A program made the translations under genes and the position numbers. Shown piece by piece: positions 9,463-49,731 of a DNA stretch of 64,000 nt (positions are counted from its first letter, which is position 1; each line of letters starts with the position of its first letter). Origin of the DNA: Pigmentiphaga sp. (GTDB lineage Bacteria; Pseudomonadota; Gammaproteobacteria; Burkholderiales; Burkholderiaceae_B); contig JALOAI010000027.1 of the NCBI GenBank assembly GCA_023228945.1, forward strand, positions 542 to 64,541, given 5' to 3'. The notes under the pieces were generated by a model. The model saw nothing but the letters and a program-made list of their open reading frames with translations. It searched no databases and was not told the DNA's origin.

Positions 9463-10001
9463 GTGAACGTCCTTTTAGGGAAAAGACTGGCCGGGGGACG
9501 GCTTTCATGCCGACGATGCGCGGTGTGAAAACCAGGCCTCGCCTATGCGGACATCCCTACGCCAGTACGAGCTGAATCAGGTTCTACGGGTATGTTCTCA
9601 GCCCCACCGTCAGCGGATGGCGGCACCCCGTGTCGTGCTGCGCGAAGATAACATGGCTTGACGCCCGAAGCCCGATCGCCTGAAGTGCGCCACGGCCGGG
9701 ACGAAGCGATGAAGCCGCCGCAGACCTCCAGCATGTTGGTGGTCACGCTTGCCCAAGATGCTGATTCAATCCTCGGTGTCAAGGATGAACAAATGACGAT
9801 GCAAAGACGATAGTGATGTTCACGGTGGTGCTGCAACAGGTGCACGAGGCACAGCCTTACAGCACTGTCCCCAGCGACGCGGATAGGCGCAACACGAAGC
9901 CTCCAGAGCGTCATGCGCCGACACGGAAAGGACAGTCGAATGCTGGTCTCGGTATTCGCTTTTGATTATATTGAATACGTTGATCGCAACAGGATCCAGA
10001 C

Positions 10002-42805: not shown

Positions 42806-43489
42806 TCAGGGCTCCCGGCGCCGGGTGCCGGGCAGCACGTAGCGCCGTTCCAGGTGGCGCGCCGCAAGTACCACCAGCGACACCAGCAACAGGTAGACGG
42901 CGCCCGCCACCAGATAGGCATCGAAGAAGCGGAAGCTGCGCACCGCGAGATCCTGCATCTGCGCGAAGAACTCCGTGTACTGGATCAGGAAGGCCACCGA
43001 ACTATCCTTGACGTTGAGGATGGCCTGGTTGGACAGCGCCGGCACCGACAGGCGCATCACCTGCGGCAGGGTGATCAGCCGGAACACCTGGCCATCGCTG
43101 AAGCCCTGGGCGCGCGCGGCCTGGAGTTCGTCGGGATCCAGGCCGCGATAGGCCGTGGCCAGATAGCGGGCGTTATAGGCCGAGACGTTCATGGTAAAGC
43201 CGATGATGGACACGGTAAGCGGCGACATCTGCACGCCCCATTGCGGCAGGCCGTAGTACATCAGGAACAGCAGGACGATCAGCGGCGTGCCGATGAAAAA
43301 CGAAATGTAGGCTTCGGTGAGCCGGCGGCAGACACGGTTGGCGCTGAGGCTGAGATAGAACACCAGAATGCCGCCCAGCAGGCCGGTGATGGTGACGATC
43401 ACCGCCAGCAGCACGGTGTTGCCGAGCCCGGACAGCACTTGCGGCCAGTAATCGGCCATCCGTTGCAGGAAGGCGAGCATGCTGCTCAC
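42806..43489 (-). CDS. polar amino-acid ABC transporter permease
   Basis: HisM/GlnP-type permease with the EAA-like loop AARAQGFSDGQVFRLITLPQ. Confidence 0.85.
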   Translation of the reverse strand: MSSMLAFLQRMADYWPQVLSGLGNTVLLAVIVTITGLLGGILVFYLSLSANRVCRRLTEAYISFFIGTPLIVLLFLMYYGLPQWGVQMSPLTVSIIGFTMNVSAYNARYLATAYRGLDPDELQAARAQGFSDGQVFRLITLPQVMRLSVPALSNQAILNVKDSSVAFLIQYTEFFAQMQDLAVRSFRFFDAYLVAGAVYLLLVSLVVLAARHLERRYVLPGTRRREP

Positions 43490-44244
43490 GGCGCGGCCTC
43501 GGTCGGGGCGCGTTCCTCGCGCTCCTGGCGGAAGAAGGCGCGCACGCGCGGGTCGGCATGCTCGCCAAAGAGGTCCTCGGCGTTGCCTTCGAGGAGGATG
43601 CGGCCCTGGTCCAGGAACAGCAGCCGCCCGCCCACGGCCCGCGCCAGATAGAGGTCGTGGGTGACGCAGAGCATCGACACGCCGTCGCGGCGCAATTGCT
43701 GCAGGATGTTGACGACTTCACGCGCCATCAGGGGATCCAGGGCCGAGGTGGGCTCGTCGAAGAACAGCACGGCGGGATCCATGGCCAGCGCGCGGGCGAT
43801 CGCCACGCGCTGCTTTTGGCCACCAGACAACTGGCTGGGGTACTTGCGCTCATGCTCGACCATGTTCATGCGGCGTAACTCCTGCCGGGCGCGTTCATCG
43901 GCTTCGGCGGCGGACATGCCGCGCAGCTTGCGCAGCCCGAGGGTGACGTTTTGCAGCGCGGTGAGGTGGCGGTACAGGGCGAAATGCTGGAAGACGAAGC
44001 CGATGCGCTGGCGCAGCGCCCGAACGTCGGTATCGGGGCGGAGGATGTCTTCACCCTGGAAAATGACTTGTCCGGAGGTGGGCGTGGCGAGCCGGTTCAG
44101 GCAGCGCAAGAGGGTGGACTTGCCCGATCCCGATGGCCCCATCACGACCTTGAGTTCGCCCTCCGCCAGATCGAAGTCGACGCCGTCGAGGGCGTTGCGG
44201 CCCTCGTAGGTCATGATCAGGTTGCGCACCGTCAGCAGGGGCAT
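43486..44244 (-). CDS. polar amino-acid ABC transporter ATP-binding protein
   Basis: GPSGSGKST, LSGGQKQRVAIARAL, VLFFDEPTSALD. Confidence 0.9.
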   Translation of the reverse strand: MPLLTVRNLIMTYEGRNALDGVDFDLAEGELKVVMGPSGSGKSTLLRCLNRLATPTSGQVIFQGEDILRPDTDVRALRQRIGFVFQHFALYRHLTALQNVTLGLRKLRGMSAAEADERARQELRRMNMVEHERKYPSQLSGGQKQRVAIARALAMDPAVLFFDEPTSALDPLMAREVVNILQQLRRDGVSMLCVTHDLYLARAVGGRLLFLDQGRILLEGNAEDLFGEHADPRVRAFFRQEREERAPTEAAP

Positions 44245-44250
44245 GGTTCT

Positions 44251-44904
44251 TCAGTGTCCGGTCAGCCCGGGAACGCGGTAGCGCTTTTCGAGCGCCCAGA
44301 CCGCGGAGACCAGGATCTTGTAGATGGCGAAGTACAGCAGCCCGACGCCCAGGTAGATCTCTACGCCGCGCAGCGTGGCGGCCGAGAGCGCCATGGCTTC
44401 TTTCATGACGTCGGGGATGCCCACCGTATAGGCGAAGGGCGAATATTTGAGCACGGTGGTGAACTCGTTGATCATGCCGGGCACGGCAAAGCGCAGCATC
44501 TGCGGCAGTTCGATGTGCAGCAGCACCTGCAGCCGGCTCATACCCATGGCCTCGGCGGCCAGGACCTCATTGCGATCGACCGAATCGAAGGCGCCGCGGA
44601 ACACTTCGCCCAGGTAGGCGCCGGCGATCACGCCCAGGCTGAGCATCATCGACACCAGGGGCGGCACGCGCAGGCCCAGATTGGGCAGACCGAAGAACAC
44701 GATGAACAGCAGCACCAGCACCGGCAGGCCGCGGAAGACGTAGGTAAAGGTGCGCAGCAACGGTTGGAGTGGCCGCCAGTCCAGGCGGTAGAGCATGGCG
44801 ATCGCCAGCCCCACGACCATACCGGTGGCGCTGCAGGCCACAGTGACCATCAGCGTATAGCCGGTGCCCTTGAACAGCAGCGCCAGGATCTGCAGGAAAT
44901 CCAT
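44251..44904 (-). CDS. polar amino-acid ABC transporter permease
   Basis: Second HisQ/GlnP-type permease: AAEAMGMSRLQVLLHIELPQ. Confidence 0.85.
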   Translation of the reverse strand: MDFLQILALLFKGTGYTLMVTVACSATGMVVGLAIAMLYRLDWRPLQPLLRTFTYVFRGLPVLVLLFIVFFGLPNLGLRVPPLVSMMLSLGVIAGAYLGEVFRGAFDSVDRNEVLAAEAMGMSRLQVLLHIELPQMLRFAVPGMINEFTTVLKYSPFAYTVGIPDVMKEAMALSAATLRGVEIYLGVGLLYFAIYKILVSAVWALEKRYRVPGLTGH

Positions 44905-44938
44905 CGTCCAGTGGTCGTTTTTTCAGCCTCCGCGCGGC

Positions 44939-45085
44939 CGCCCGAAGGAGGCTGAAGCCCCCTCGGGGGGCAGCGAACGCAGTGAGCGTGGGGGCAGTTT
45001 TATCTTTCCGCTCGGTCGCCCGAAGGAGGCTGAAGCGCCCTTGGGGGGCAGCGAACGCAGTGAGCGTGGGGGCAGTTTCATCTCA
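44939..45085. repeat. two tandem copies of a roughly 69-bp element (78-bp period) between the binding-protein and permease genes
   Basis: Copy 1 is 44939-45007 and copy 2 is 45017-45085: CGCCCGAAGGAGGCTGAAGC(C/G)CCCT(C/T)GGGGGGCAGCGAACGCAGTGAGCGTGGGGGCAGTTT... There are about 6 mismatches. Each copy holds a GCCCCC/GGGGGC hairpin, and copy 1 is extended by the 8-bp inverted repeat CAGCCTCC...GGAGGCTG (44924-44954). Confidence 0.8.
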
Positions 45086-45094
45086 GGCGCTAGT

Positions 45095-45838
45095 TCAATC
45101 GAGCCATTTGTCGATCAGGGCCTGGCGGTCTTCGGGCTTGAGTTCGTTGCTAAGGTATTCGTCGACGTCTTCGCGCAGCTTGCTGCCTTTGGGAAAGGCG
45201 AAGCCGAAACGATCGAAGCCGGTGAACACGTAGCTGTCGCGCACGGGCAGCGTTTTGCGGTACACCGAGGCCACCGTGCCGTCGAGAAAGGCGAGGTCTA
45301 GGTTGCCGTTCTGCAGATCGGCCAGCACTTCGTTGTACGAGGGATAGAGCTTGACCTGGTCGAGGTTGTAGATGCCCTTGGGCTGCAGATCGTTGCGAAT
45401 GAAGTCGCTGTAGGCCATGCCGCGCGGATAGCCGATGCTGTATTGCTTGAGTTCGGAAAGGTCGTCCAGCTCGATGTTGCGGCTGTTCAGGCTGACCAAG
45501 TTCCAGGTGTTCTCCATATAGGGCTGGGAGAAATCCATCACTTCCTTGCGGGCATCGGTGATCGAAATCCCTGAAAAAGCGACATCGACCTGTTTGCTGA
45601 CCACCGCGCCCAGCATGCCTTGCCAATCGTAGGCGGTGATCTGCAAAGTGCAGCCGCGAGCCTTGCAATAGCCTTCGAAGAGTTCGAGGTCGAGCCCGAC
45701 GGTACGGCCGTTTTCTTCATACAAATTGGGCGGCGAAGCCGGGGTCACGGCAACCCGAATGACGTTGTCGGCGTCTTTGGAAGAGCAGCCGGCCAAGAAC
45801 AACAGGACGATACCGAGCAGAGCGGTGATGCCACGCAT
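45095..45838 (-). CDS. polar amino-acid ABC transporter substrate-binding lipoprotein
   Basis: MRGITALLGIVLLFLAGCSS has a perfect lipobox. The family-3 SBP core is present (DVAFSGISITDARKEVMDFSQPY). Confidence 0.85.
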   Translation of the reverse strand: MRGITALLGIVLLFLAGCSSKDADNVIRVAVTPASPPNLYEENGRTVGLDLELFEGYCKARGCTLQITAYDWQGMLGAVVSKQVDVAFSGISITDARKEVMDFSQPYMENTWNLVSLNSRNIELDDLSELKQYSIGYPRGMAYSDFIRNDLQPKGIYNLDQVKLYPSYNEVLADLQNGNLDLAFLDGTVASVYRKTLPVRDSYVFTGFDRFGFAFPKGSKLREDVDEYLSNELKPEDRQALIDKWLD

Positions 45839-46013
45839 GGGTGCCTCGCTTGTGGGGATGAAGAAGACGTGCCAAAAAAACCAGCTCAGCGATGGTAGCA
45901 GACTCTTTTTGTGCCCGGAATCACCGAAATATGGGAGATGTTGTTATGATTGCCGTTGTGGCGATACGCTAGACAGCGTAGCGTCTACATTGCGTCCGGC
46001 AAAGTGCCGGCGT

Positions 46014-46213
46014 GGGATCGGGAGAGTTCGTGCCAGTTTGCGCTGGCCGGCGCCGAAGGAGCAACCGCCCCGGAATCTCTCAGGCCAATGGACCGGACCA
46101 CGAGCGAACGCACTCTGAAGAGAACTGGGCGGCATCGTCGGCCCAGCGCACCGAAGGAGCAAGCGAGGCGTCCTCCACGCCTCGTGAATCTCTCAGGTTC
46201 CAAACAGAGGGGG
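46014..46213 (+). promoter_or_regulatory. tandem glycine riboswitch (two aptamers)
   Basis: Aptamer 1 reads GGGAGAG..(P3)..GGCGCCGAAGGAGCAACCGCCCCGGAATCTCTCAGGCCAATGGACCGG. Aptamer 2 reads CACTCTGAAGAGAAC....GCGCACCGAAGGAGCAAGCGAGG...GAATCTCTCAGGTTCCAAACAGAGGGG. Both carry the conserved GGAGAG / ACCGAAGGrGCAA / CUCUCAGG / GGAC-or-ACAG cores of the gcvT motif. It ends 55 nt before the ATG of the next gene. Confidence 0.85.
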
Positions 46214-46267
46214 TGTCCGTCACACAGCCGTGTGCGGGCTACTTTCCCCGACGGTTGGAGCCTATTC

Positions 46268-47527
46268 ATGAAATCCCTCGCAGTCATCGGTGGTGGCATC
46301 ACGGGTGTTACCACGGCCTACGCGCTCGTCCGGCGCGGATTCGACGTCACCTTGTTCGAGCGGCATCGCTACGCCGCCATGGAAACCTCGTTCGCCAATG
46401 GCGGGCAACTGTCGGCCTCCAACGCCGAGGTATGGAACCACCCCTCGACCCTGCTCAAAGGCATCAAGTGGATGCTCAAGAGCGACGCGCCGCTGCTGGT
46501 CAACCCCAAGCCCAGCTGGCACAAGCTGTCGTGGTTCGCGGAATTCATCGCCAAGCTGCCGCAATATGAACGCAACACCGTGGAAACCGCGCGCCTGGCC
46601 ATCGTGGCACGGCAGCATTTGTTTTCCTGGGCCGAAGCCGAGGGCATCGATTTCGACCTGAAGCGCGAAGGGATCCTGCACATCTATCGCGACAAGGCCG
46701 GCTTCGACCACGCCGCGCGGGTGTCGCAGTTGCTGGCTCGTGGCGGGCTCGAGCGGCGTGCCGTCACGCCATCCGAAATGCGCCAGATCGAGCCGACGCT
46801 GGCGGGCGATTACTACGGTGGTTACTACACCGAGAGCGATTCCACCGGCGACATCCATCGCTTCACCATGGGTCTGGCGGCGGCCGCCGCCAGATTGGGC
46901 GTCGCTTGCCGCTACGATCAAGACGTCCGGGAAGTGCGCCGCGACGGCGGGCGGATTACCGTGGCCGTCGGGGCGGGCGATGGCCTGGCGCGCTCATCCT
47001 TCGATGGGGTCGTGATCTGCGCCGGTACGGCCAGCCGCGCACTGGCGGCCAGCCTTGGCGATCGGGTGAATGTCTACCCCGTAAAGGGCTACTCCATCAC
47101 GGTCAACCTCGAAGACGAAGCCAGCCGGCTGGCCGCGCCCAACGTCAGCCTGCTCGACGACGAAACCAAATTGGTCAGCAGCCGGCTGGGGCCCGATCGC
47201 TTCCGCGTGGCGGGCACGGCCGAATTCAACGGCTTCAATCGCGACATCCGCGCCGACCGCATCCGGCCGCTGGTGGAATGGGTGCAGCATTGCTTCCCGG
47301 GCGTCAACACGCACAACGTGGTGCCCTGGGCCGGCTTGCGCCCCATGATGCCCGACATGATGCCGCGAGTGGGGCGTGGCCGGGCGCCGGGGGTGTTCTA
47401 CAACACCGGGCATGGCCATTTGGGCTGGACATTGTCCGCCGCCACCGCGGATCTGGTTGCGGAGGTGGTGCAAGGCACCATGGAGCAGCCGGCGGTGCCG
47501 GTGCGCCAGCCGGCGGTGGCGGGGTAG
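46268..47527 (+). CDS. FAD-dependent D-amino-acid dehydrogenase-family oxidoreductase (DadA-like)
   Basis: MKSLAVIGGGITGVTTAYALVRRGFDVTLFE is a GxGxxG FAD fold. ...FNTGHGHLGWTL is the C-terminal DadA motif. GGAG lies 9 nt upstream. Confidence 0.85.
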   Translation: MKSLAVIGGGITGVTTAYALVRRGFDVTLFERHRYAAMETSFANGGQLSASNAEVWNHPSTLLKGIKWMLKSDAPLLVNPKPSWHKLSWFAEFIAKLPQYERNTVETARLAIVARQHLFSWAEAEGIDFDLKREGILHIYRDKAGFDHAARVSQLLARGGLERRAVTPSEMRQIEPTLAGDYYGGYYTESDSTGDIHRFTMGLAAAAARLGVACRYDQDVREVRRDGGRITVAVGAGDGLARSSFDGVVICAGTASRALAASLGDRVNVYPVKGYSITVNLEDEASRLAAPNVSLLDDETKLVSSRLGPDRFRVAGTAEFNGFNRDIRADRIRPLVEWVQHCFPGVNTHNVVPWAGLRPMMPDMMPRVGRGRAPGVFYNTGHGHLGWTLSAATADLVAEVVQGTMEQPAVPVRQPAVAG

Positions 47528-47608
47528 CTTCCATTTCGGGGCCGACGCTTGGCGGCCTGGCCCGGAGCAAGCGCCATCGCGCCTTACGGGAACGTACGCC
47601 GCCCGTTT

Positions 47609-48742
47609 TCAGCCCTGGGCGCCGCGGTTTCGGGCGCCGAGCGACAGGCAGGCTTGCAGGACCGCCACCCGGCTTTGGGCCGCCACCATGCCGCGCCAGG
47701 TGTCGTCATCCTGGTAGAACGCTGCCACCATGTCCTGACGGATGCGGTCGGCCAGGTCGGGGGGGGCCTCGGGATGGCCATGCAACCAGTGATCACCGCG
47801 CACCGCATCGAGGAAATTCTCATAGGGTACGGTGCCGAACTCCAGGGCGATGCTGAGCAACTCGGTGTCGGGACATTCCTCCTGCGCGCTCAAGGTCAGG
47901 AAGCCGAGTACTTGCTCCGAAGCCGAGCCGCCCTCCCACGCCGCCACGACGTCGGCGCCCCAGGTGGCGCGACCGGCGGCCAGGGCCGTCGCGTTGGGCG
48001 GGCCGGCGTGGATTTTTTCGCCGTGCCCCCAGGGGCCGAGACCGGTGTGCAGGTCGACCCAGGCCAGAGCAGGCCGTGCGGCGGCATGGCGGCGCAAAAG
48101 ATCGCGTACCACCCGGTTGCTCCAGGTGGGTCGGTTGCCCGCATAGAACATGCCATCCGGGTGGTTGCGCTGGCCAGCGGTAACGGCTTGCCGATACGCC
48201 GCCGCGCCATGCTGCGCAATATAGGCCTGGAGGGCCTGGGTGACCTCGTGAGCGGGCGGCCAAGTGGCCGGCAGCAGAAGGTCATGCAGGTCGGCATACG
48301 CCAGGTTGGCGTCGCGCGGTGGCGCCGCGAAATCGAGGAAGTTGCGGTTAAGGTCGACGTTGTCCTCGTTGGCGCGGCGCCAATAGGAGAAGCCGTGGGG
48401 ATTGAGCGCATGCAGAAACAGCAGATCGACCCCCTGGCGCGAAGCCTTGGCCAGGAGATCGGCGTCGTTGAGCATCGCGACTTGGCAACCCGAGCCGCAG
48501 ATCCCCTCGACGCCATGGATTCCGGAAGACACCACGACCAGGGGACCGCCAGGCTGTTCGCTGGGCAGCAGGGCGGCGTCCAGCGCCAGCTCCTCTCCCT
48601 CGCGGCCCAGGTGGCCGGGCAGGACATGATGCTCCAGCGTGGCGGTAGCCTGGCTGGCAACGCGCAGGAAGTTGGCGCGGGCCTGCGCATAGCTGGGGCT
48701 GAAGTCCGCCTGGGGGCGGGGCGCGGCGAAAGCGGGGCTCAT
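47609..48742 (-). CDS. DUF2817/M14-like zinc carboxypeptidase-fold protein
   Basis: VVVSSGIHGVEG...LHALNPHGFSYWRRANEDNVDLNRNF matches the M14/succinylglutamate-desuccinylase-like zinc-site layout (HxxE ... NRNF). Confidence 0.7.
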   Translation of the reverse strand: MSPAFAAPRPQADFSPSYAQARANFLRVASQATATLEHHVLPGHLGREGEELALDAALLPSEQPGGPLVVVSSGIHGVEGICGSGCQVAMLNDADLLAKASRQGVDLLFLHALNPHGFSYWRRANEDNVDLNRNFLDFAAPPRDANLAYADLHDLLLPATWPPAHEVTQALQAYIAQHGAAAYRQAVTAGQRNHPDGMFYAGNRPTWSNRVVRDLLRRHAAARPALAWVDLHTGLGPWGHGEKIHAGPPNATALAAGRATWGADVVAAWEGGSASEQVLGFLTLSAQEECPDTELLSIALEFGTVPYENFLDAVRGDHWLHGHPEAPPDLADRIRQDMVAAFYQDDDTWRGMVAAQSRVAVLQACLSLGARNRGAQG

Positions 48743-49731
48743 TGCGGCTGGAATCCGATTTTTTCGATGATGGAGGACCAGGTCTCCGAAGCCTGCCGGA
48801 TATTGCTCCGCACGCCGTCGGGACCGGTGTAGTCGGGCTCCATCCCCAGGGCGGCGAGTTTGTCGCGCAGGCCGGGATCCTGCAGCACGCGGCTCAAGGC
48901 GGTGTTGTAGCGCTGAATGACATCCTCGGGCGTACCGGCCGGCGCGAACAGAGACAGGAAGTTGGACAGCTCCAGTCCCTCGATGCCTTCCTCGATGAAG
49001 GTGGGGACATTGGGCAGTAGCGGCGAGCGTTCGGTTCCGGAGACGGCGATGATGCGGATGCCGCCCGCTTGCTCATGCTGTAGAAGTTCGCTCGGGGCCG
49101 TGATGCCGGCATGGATCTGGCCGGCGAGAAGGTCTAGGGCCATAGGAGCGCCGCCCCGATAAGCGATCGGGTTGGCCTCGATATCGAGTTTGTCGGCGAT
49201 CAGGTTCACGGCAAACTCGGGCACGCTGGCCGGCGCGGGTACGCCGACATTCGCCTGTTGCGCATTCTGGCGCGCCCAGGCGGCGAACTCCTGCAGATTG
49301 GTCGCCCGGGTGGACGGGTGGACGGCAAAGCCCATGGCGATCTGCGCGACATTGCCGATCGGCGCAAGATCCGCGGCGGGATCGAAGCCGGGGTCTTTGG
49401 TGGTGAGAGGGATGATGACCACCGTATGATCGTTGGAGAGGAACAGCGTCTGGCCGTCGGGCGCCGCTTGCGTTAGCGCTATGGCCGCGATCTTGCCGCC
49501 CGCACCGGCACGGTTTTCTACGATAAAGGGTTGGTTCAGTTCCCGACCCAGGGCATCGGCCAAATGACGAGCAACGGCGTCGACGCCGCCGCCGGGCGCG
49601 AAGCCGACCAGAATGCGCACCGGGGCGGAGGACGACTGGGCAAAGCAGGCGGTGCTGGCGGCCAGGCCGGTGGCGAGCGCCACGGTGTAGGCGCCGCGTT
49701 TCAGCCAGGAAAGGGGGGCAATGAAAGGCAT
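48739..49731 (-). CDS. Bug-family substrate-binding protein
   Basis: Signal peptide ...VALATGLAASTACFAQS, then PVRILVGFAPGGGVDAVARHLA...ENRAGAGGKIAA. Its stop overlaps the DUF2817 start (ATGA). Confidence 0.8.
   Translation of the reverse strand: MPFIAPLSWLKRGAYTVALATGLAASTACFAQSSSAPVRILVGFAPGGGVDAVARHLADALGRELNQPFIVENRAGAGGKIAAIALTQAAPDGQTLFLSNDHTVVIIPLTTKDPGFDPAADLAPIGNVAQIAMGFAVHPSTRATNLQEFAAWARQNAQQANVGVPAPASVPEFAVNLIADKLDIEANPIAYRGGAPMALDLLAGQIHAGITAPSELLQHEQAGGIRIIAVSGTERSPLLPNVPTFIEEGIEGLELSNFLSLFAPAGTPEDVIQRYNTALSRVLQDPGLRDKLAALGMEPDYTGPDGVRSNIRQASETWSSIIEKIGFQPQ

Follow-up and report, generated by a model that had tools for sequence, protein, structure and literature searches.

The leader at 46009-46267 of the window (the whole 64,000-nucleotide stretch of DNA analysed here) is highly likely to be a translational ON switch, in which a tandem glycine riboswitch drives a DadA6-type enzyme that converts glycine to glyoxylate. 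Two glycine aptamers lie directly in front of the gene, the encoded protein is orthologous to DadA6 of Cupriavidus necator, the pairing of this RNA with this gene is conserved among relatives, and bases inside the second aptamer covary with the Shine-Dalgarno (SD) region. The original prediction of a tandem glycine riboswitch in front of a DadA-like dehydrogenase gene is confirmed as an observation and was largely right in its interpretation, but the arrangement is not new, and both the link to a neighbouring ABC operon and the choice of the regulatory helix had to be corrected.

A search of the window with Infernal and the Rfam 15 model RF00504, whose gathering score is 32 bits, placed aptamer 1 at 46009-46105 (+) with 52.6 bits (E = 6e-8 over the whole window). 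Aptamer 2, at 46105-46217 (+), scored 40.2 bits when 46100-46270 was scanned alone, and the whole-genome search reports both. Scans of the whole window, by gathering score or by E-value, gave aptamer 1 alone because base 46105 belongs to both hits and the lower-scoring of two overlapping hits is dropped. Both aptamers exceed the gathering score, as expected of the tandem form, and all the core motifs first quoted for them are present in the sequence. The elements of the two aptamers are as follows.

46020-46026 (+), aptamer 1 motif GGGAGAG
46051-46064 (+), aptamer 1 motif CGCCGAAGGAGCAA
46074-46085 (+), aptamer 1 motif AATCTCTCAGGC
46090-46095 (+), aptamer 1 motif GGACCG
Aptamer 1 J1/2 (+), GGAGAG
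46058-46061 and 46077-46081 (+), aptamer 1 pocket strands GGAG and CUCUC
46068-46071 (+), poly-C of the aptamer 1 P3b loop
46113-46122 (+), aptamer 2 motif CTCTGAAGAG
46149-46162 (+), aptamer 2 motif CACCGAAGGAGCAA
46187-46197 (+), aptamer 2 motif AATCTCTCAGG
46204-46209 (+), aptamer 2 motif ACAGAG
46113-46117 with 46205-46209 (+), aptamer 2 P1, CUCUG with CAGAG
46156-46159 and 46190-46194 (+), aptamer 2 pocket strands GGAG and CUCUC
46210-46213 (+), poly-G run directly 3' of aptamer 2, the 3' strand of the P5 pseudoknot with the poly-C at 46068-46071

The glycine site is formed by the GGAG and CUCUC pocket strands (Torgerson et al. 2020, PMC7161355). We defined the pocket as GG(A/G)G together with CUCUC carrying a bulged U, the choice of the bulged U being our own reading, and found GGAG and CUCUC in both aptamers; in aptamer 2 the two strands are invariant among 74 family leaders. 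Aptamer 2 deviates from the usual sequence at two junctions, J1/2 being AAGAG (usually GAGAG) and J3/1 being UUCCAAA (usually AAAAGGA), and both deviations are kept throughout the dadA6-type family. Most ON-type tandem switches have a P5 pseudoknot between the P3b poly-C of aptamer 1 and a poly-G after aptamer 2 (PMC7161355), and both elements of this ON-type feature are found here, CCCC at 46068-46071 and GGGG at 46210-46213. GGGGG is invariant in 75/75 leaders and CCGCCCCGG is present in 29 of the 31 parseable leaders; as both strands are invariant, P5 offers no countable covariation. Judged from its sequence, 46009-46217 is genuinely a glycine riboswitch of the tandem form.

The gene behind the riboswitch is the following.

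46268-47527 (+), dadA6-type FAD enzyme gene, 419 aa, Pfam DAO, NF009074

Its start ATG at 46268 lies seven bases past a GGAG (46257-46260), and 51-59 nt separate this ATG from aptamer 2, depending on the choice of the aptamer end, which makes the 55 nt originally given a fair value. A longer in-frame ORF starting with TTG at 45950 was rejected as the gene because relatives align from residue 1. The next gene, at 47609-48742 (-), is convergent and encodes a DUF2817 (M14-like) protein (375 bits), so that the riboswitch-controlled gene is monocistronic. A plus-strand ORF at 47549-48832 was also considered as a second operon gene and rejected, as it has no family match and the overlapping minus-strand ORF has the DUF2817 match and the higher GC3.

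The 419-aa protein matches Pfam DAO (PF01266) with 6e-72 and, over residues 1-405, the NCBIfam equivalog NF009074/PRK12409 with 734.2 bits, well above the cut-off of 494. Its score for canonical DadA (NF001933/PRK00711), 350.4 bits, stays below the cut-off of 383, and its score for ThiO (TIGR02352), 146.8 bits, is below the cut-off of 250.8, showing that the protein is not a ThiO. When NF009074 was run on 151 genomes sampled evenly from the order, four gave 697-740 bits and the rest 363 bits or less; this gap between two score groups (363 to 697 bits) indicates that the NF009074 clade is well separated. The paralogues in the same genome are 41% and 37% identical to the protein, and the nearest solved structures by sequence are the glycine oxidases 7cyx, 4ysh and 1ryi (E values from 7e-19 to 3e-11).

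C. necator DadA6 is UniProt Q0K3W9, and primers for checking the deletion of its gene have been published (Nat Microbiol 2025). The forward primer matches 2 of 77 Cupriavidus genomes, and in one of these, G025, the reverse primer is found as well. The two primers bracket G025:C2:496092-499634, and the protein of the only gene at the centre of this interval is 82% identical to the window protein over 403 residues, the next paralogue in that genome reaching 38%. Directly upstream of this dadA6 locus lies the same tandem riboswitch, with 62.3 and 41.8 bits. As far as sequence can tell, the window protein is the orthologue of C. necator DadA6. In C. necator, deletion of dadA6 ends growth on glycine and deletion of the glycine cleavage genes does not; DadA6 also allows an E. 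coli glyoxylate auxotroph to grow on glycine, and its oxidation of glycine to glyoxylate has been shown in vivo, for the C. necator protein only (bioRxiv 10.1101/2020.03.11.987487). The idea that the enzyme is induced by glycine and forms glyoxylate is borne out for this 82%-identical orthologue, and by analogy the 419-aa enzyme is very probably a glycine-induced, glyoxylate-making enzyme as well. The riboswitch is not mentioned in the DadA6 papers (Claassens et al. 2020 preprint; Nat Microbiol 2025).

The 80 closest relatives of the gene belong to Comamonadaceae, Cupriavidus, Massilia, Janthinobacterium, Stutzerimonas and Halopseudomonas. Two CCGAAGG-type and two CTCTCAGG motifs were found upstream in all of them with enough upstream DNA, except L021 (Tepidimonas aquatica), where the leader is degenerate and aptamer 1 is lost. 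Of 16 loci sampled, 15 had aptamer 1 above the Rfam cut-off with 55-77 bits, and aptamer 2 had 34-49 bits where it was listed. Given these family-wide lower scores of aptamer 2 relative to aptamer 1, and its non-consensus J1/2 and J3/1, glycine binding by aptamer 2 is treated here as an assumption. Among the 151 evenly sampled genomes, a riboswitch precedes 4/4 NF009074-type genes. The divergent polar-amino-acid ABC transporter at 42806-45838, which had been suggested as a possible part of the same physiology, is not conserved beside the gene: a match was found in 3 of the 80 relative loci, at 23-25% identity, and the transporter was rejected as a member of the module because it is not syntenic in relatives.

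The part of the leader that would connect the aptamers to the ribosome-binding site contains the following elements, together with one in aptamer 2.

46195-46203 (+), anti-SD stretch AGGUUCCAA, within the P3 closing pairs and J3/1 of aptamer 2
46255-46263 (+), SD region UUGGAGCCU, containing GGAG 46257-46260, partner of the anti-SD stretch
46214-46242 (+), central platform hairpin, including CACAC 46221-46225 with GUGUG 46230-46234
46250-46253 (+), conserved GACG just 5' of the SD, complementary to CGUC
46136-46139 (+), conserved CGUC in the P2 loop of aptamer 2, nearly invariant

In the minimum-energy fold of 46190-46300, a 9-bp helix between 46195-46203 and 46255-46263 covers the SD, and folding the entire 281-nt leader to minimum energy gives this helix again. 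Both pairings originally put forward as a possible expression platform, CCCC/GGGG and CACAC/GTGTG, are present in the predicted fold, the former pairing about 46209-46213 with 46246-46249 and the latter lying in the central hairpin, but the key regulatory helix is the 9-bp helix over the SD. RNAalifold on the family leaders gave compensatory changes for 8/8 consensus pairs of the central hairpin.

On the MAFFT alignment of the platform, RNAalifold missed the anti-SD helix because the J3/1 types differ by a one-base register; the helix was hence tested by duplex energies and permutation instead of alignment consensus. The J3/1 consensus is CAAAAGGAC, and the dadA6-type family shows 18 J3/1 variants, each of which matches its own SD flank. 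Examples of such matched changes of J3/1 and SD flank are UCCAGAAC with GUUCUGGA, UCCGGAAAC with GUUUCCGGA, UCCAGCAC with GUGCUGGA, and CUCCAAAC with GUUUGGAG. With one representative leader per J3/1 type (n = 18), the mean duplex energy of the anti-SD stretch was -12.6 kcal/mol with its own SD region vs -8.8 kcal/mol with foreign ones; the own-partner mean was reached in 0 of 5000 permutations, a count that overstates independence because the leader sequences are related to each other. The helix thus covers the SD, excludes the folded aptamer and covaries, as is expected of an SD-sequestering platform. No terminator-like site was found in 46009-46267, the sequence past the hairpin being CUACUUUCCCCGACGG, and the leader has no platform of the B. 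subtilis gcvT terminator type, in which a GC-rich stem is followed by a U-tract.

The conserved CGUC and GACG could also pair with each other. For this pair, 97.5% of cells pair vs 96.1% in shuffles, with one double change (CGCC with GGCG, in L051), a formal count that is weak because both motifs hardly vary. Wobble changes are tolerated, and CGUC and GACG are lost together in one Polaromonas-like group. The two motifs may form a candidate loop-linker contact of the dadA6-type subclass, or their complementarity may be a coincidence.

From these elements, we infer the glycine-bound state of the leader, its translational mode of action and the fate of glycine as follows. When glycine is absent, the aptamer 2 bases 46195-46203 would pair with the SD region 46255-46263 and the poly-G 46210-46213 would pair with the CCCC at 46246-46249, and the two pairings together would make one long hairpin masking the ribosome-binding site. 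When glycine is present, the aptamers would fold, P1 of aptamer 2 would form (46113-46117 with 46205-46209), and the poly-G would form the P5 pseudoknot with the poly-C loop of the first aptamer; the folded aptamer 2 and P5 would then withdraw the anti-SD stretch and leave the ribosome-binding site free. Since aptamer 2 in its folded form (P1 paired, J3/1 ordered, poly-G bound in P5) is incompatible with the SD-occluding hairpin, glycine should open the ribosome-binding site and the leader should act as an ON switch. The DadA6-type flavoenzyme switched on in this way would convert glycine to glyoxylate and ammonia, and would remove or use excess glycine.

Sequestration of an SD commonly exposes the leader to Rho. 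Control might be exerted mainly at the level of the transcript, for example by Rho-dependent termination in the untranslated leader or by mRNA decay, and not by SD occlusion alone, which we consider possible but rather unlikely. The dadA6 transcript of C. necator increases ~200-fold on glycine, an increase that pure translational control alone would not predict, but these data are from an evolved strain across different carbon sources, so that other regulators may act (Claassens et al., bioRxiv 10.1101/2020.03.11.987487). On the other side, no intrinsic terminator was found in the leader, and it is the SD that the covarying helix covers. We prefer translational control by SD occlusion, to which Rho-dependent termination, decay of the mRNA or a regulatory protein may add in the induction of the gene. 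The riboswitch is a simple explanation on offer for the strong induction of dadA6, which is relevant to the engineering of the reductive glycine pathway.

It is improbable that D-amino acids are the real substrates of the enzyme, with glycine being only a side substrate or a signal of cell-wall or D-alanine stress. The NCBIfam name of the NF009074 family is indeed D-amino acid dehydrogenase, the reports on DadA6 give no substrate range, and glycine disturbs peptidoglycan synthesis (cited in PMC6944388). However, the family is clearly apart from canonical DadA, as seen from the sub-threshold NF001933 score, and a glycine riboswitch precedes 4/4 members of the family and 0 of the canonical DadA genes checked by position. 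In addition, no alanine racemase lies beside the gene, and C. necator without dadA6 does not grow on glycine. The presence of a glycine riboswitch before essentially every member, together with the experiments on C. necator DadA6, points to glycine as the physiological substrate of NF009074 enzymes, a result of value for annotation because these genes are named 'D-amino acid dehydrogenase'. The reverse logic, an OFF switch through which glycine represses the gene, is known from some tandem glycine riboswitches, those of transporters (PMC7161355), but is most improbable here, because the anti-SD lies inside the aptamer 2 core and makes the folded aptamer and the occluded SD mutually exclusive, and because the better-conserved aptamer 1 and the poly-C/poly-G P5 are described ON-type traits (PMC7161355) and the C. 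necator orthologue is induced by glycine, all of which agree with an ON switch.

The source of the window is a landfill-metagenome MAG of 88 contigs, 99.4% complete with 2.9% contamination, which falls in the neighbourhood of Comamonadaceae. A separate riboswitch-controlled gcvTHP, which the original prediction had considered might exist elsewhere in the genome, was not found in the MAG: the whole-genome RF00504 search returned a single tandem glycine riboswitch, the P-protein family PF02347 (gcvP) had no match, and no convincing gcvT was present. The best GCV_T match, 33 bits, belongs to a 321-aa ORF that we take for a putative YgfZ-like folate-binding protein, and a stand-alone GcvH is present. 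Because the genome is a MAG, the missing gcv genes could sit on unbinned contigs. The best match to glyoxylate carboligase in the MAG had 339 bits against a cut-off of 711, and a contig edge carries the C-terminal third of malate synthase G; with this fragment and no carboligase reaching the cut-off, glycine could plausibly be routed by way of glyoxylate to malate. The riboswitch-controlled enzyme may be the main means of glycine disposal in the source organism. Among public sequencing runs, this stretch occurs in DNA metagenomes only; RNA runs contain 4-5% of the words sampled from it. As a tentative extension, the dadA6-type leaders might constitute an undescribed subclass, characterized by J3/1 of aptamer 2 acting as the anti-SD and possibly by the CGUC/GACG contact, which may contribute to setting the switch; the RNA-enzyme pair would be the only dedicated glycine disposal in genomes that, like the MAG, lack the P and T proteins.

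A literature search on glycine riboswitches combined with D-amino acid dehydrogenase or glycine oxidase gave nothing relevant. The placement of a glycine riboswitch before dadA, originally presented as a departure from the classical gcv targets, has nevertheless been on record since 2013: Sun et al. (2013; BMC Genomics 14:597, Additional file 1; RegPrecise) list 'gcvTHP-sdaA; dadA' under a glycine riboswitch in R. eutropha H16 and C. taiwanensis, and also list dadA in the glycine-riboswitch regulons of B. vietnamiensis G4 and P. stutzeri A1501. The pairing of riboswitch and dadA is real, conserved and already catalogued, and the present case is a sound, fairly ordinary example of it that opens no new field. 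What is added here is the tie to DadA6, a probable translational platform with an anti-SD embedded in the aptamer, and the observation that the MAG apparently lacks the glycine cleavage system. The platform would illustrate neatly, in a natural RNA, how a tandem ON switch can work through SD occlusion by aptamer bases.

Compared with known systems, the RegPrecise dadA entry describes the same RNA family before a dadA-annotated gene, and the H16-type locus was confirmed directly in this study; the entry is, however, a catalogue only, with a main text silent on the function of the enzyme and on the expression platform, and the MAG adds one more genome to those it lists. C. necator DadA6 shares with the window the NF009074 family, 82% identity and the upstream tandem riboswitch, whereas C. 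necator also has gcvTHP under riboswitch control and a route through glyoxylate carboligase, neither of which is seen in the MAG. The ThiO/GO glycine oxidases have the DAO fold family and the chemistry from glycine to iminoacetate/glyoxylate in common with the window enzyme, but the window gene has no thiamine gene context and its product falls below the TIGR02352 cut-off. The gcvT-type switch of Cupriavidus (L086), from the same genus as DadA6, belongs to the same RNA family and has the same tandem architecture, yet its aptamer 2 has retained the canonical GGAGAG and GGAC, and the switch is closed by a terminator consisting of a stem and a U-tract. The B. subtilis gcvT switch, an ON switch working by transcription termination, resembles the window leader in its two aptamers, its ON logic, its better-conserved first aptamer and a poly-C/poly-G P5 pseudoknot that competes with the platform. 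In contrast, the window leader is without a terminator, its aptamer 2 has AAGAG in J1/2, and its SD would be sequestered by J3/1 of that aptamer.

Within aptamer 2, the P2 loop carries a conserved CGUC (46136-46139) that is complementary to a conserved GACG (46250-46253) lying 5' of the Shine-Dalgarno region, and we regard the two segments as a candidate tertiary contact. Both are missing, having been lost jointly, in a Polaromonas-like group of leaders, and a single compensatory change (n = 1) was observed, in another dadA6-type leader (L051). The A of CCGAAGG, at the alignment column of window position 46154, is strongly conserved in the Rfam consensus; among the aligned aptamer-2 sequences of dadA6-type leaders it is replaced by C, G or U in many members (e.g., CACCGCAGGAGCAA), and in the window it is retained.

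A reduced form of the leader was found in Tepidimonas aquatica (L021:3700-4003), where a dadA6-type gene is preceded by the 3' half only, that is, the aptamer-2 core, the anti-SD and the platform. Unrelated sequence stands in place of aptamer 1 and the CUCUGAAGAG strand, and no RF00504 match above the cut-off was detected in this interval. This leader may be a natural switch that has decayed or been rearranged.

Other features of the window are as follows.
9537-9640, minus strand: TPP riboswitch, scoring 62.8 bits with RF00059 (cut-off, 54.3).
47609-48742, minus strand: gene facing the dadA6-type gene in convergent orientation; it scores 375 bits for the DUF2817/M14-like zinc carboxypeptidase family.
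The plus-strand ORF overlapping the latter (47549-48832, 427 aa) had no family match and looks spurious.

In the window's own genome, a landfill MAG, matches were obtained to GcvH, GCV_T and malate synthase G (C83:57458-57811, C9:238649-238885 and C50:5-502). GcvH (112 bits) stands alone, GCV_T is only a 33-bit match, of malate synthase G only a C-terminal piece is present, located at the edge of a contig, and no P-protein match was found in this genome. Glycine cleavage seems to be absent from this 99.4%-complete MAG.

Cupriavidus carries a second tandem glycine riboswitch (C. campinensis, L086:1501-1800), located upstream of a 375-aa ORF that we take to be gcvT from the regulon list of Sun et al. 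It has a classic terminator platform, with a stem and a U-tract; therefore, two different expression platforms serve the same aptamer family within one genus.
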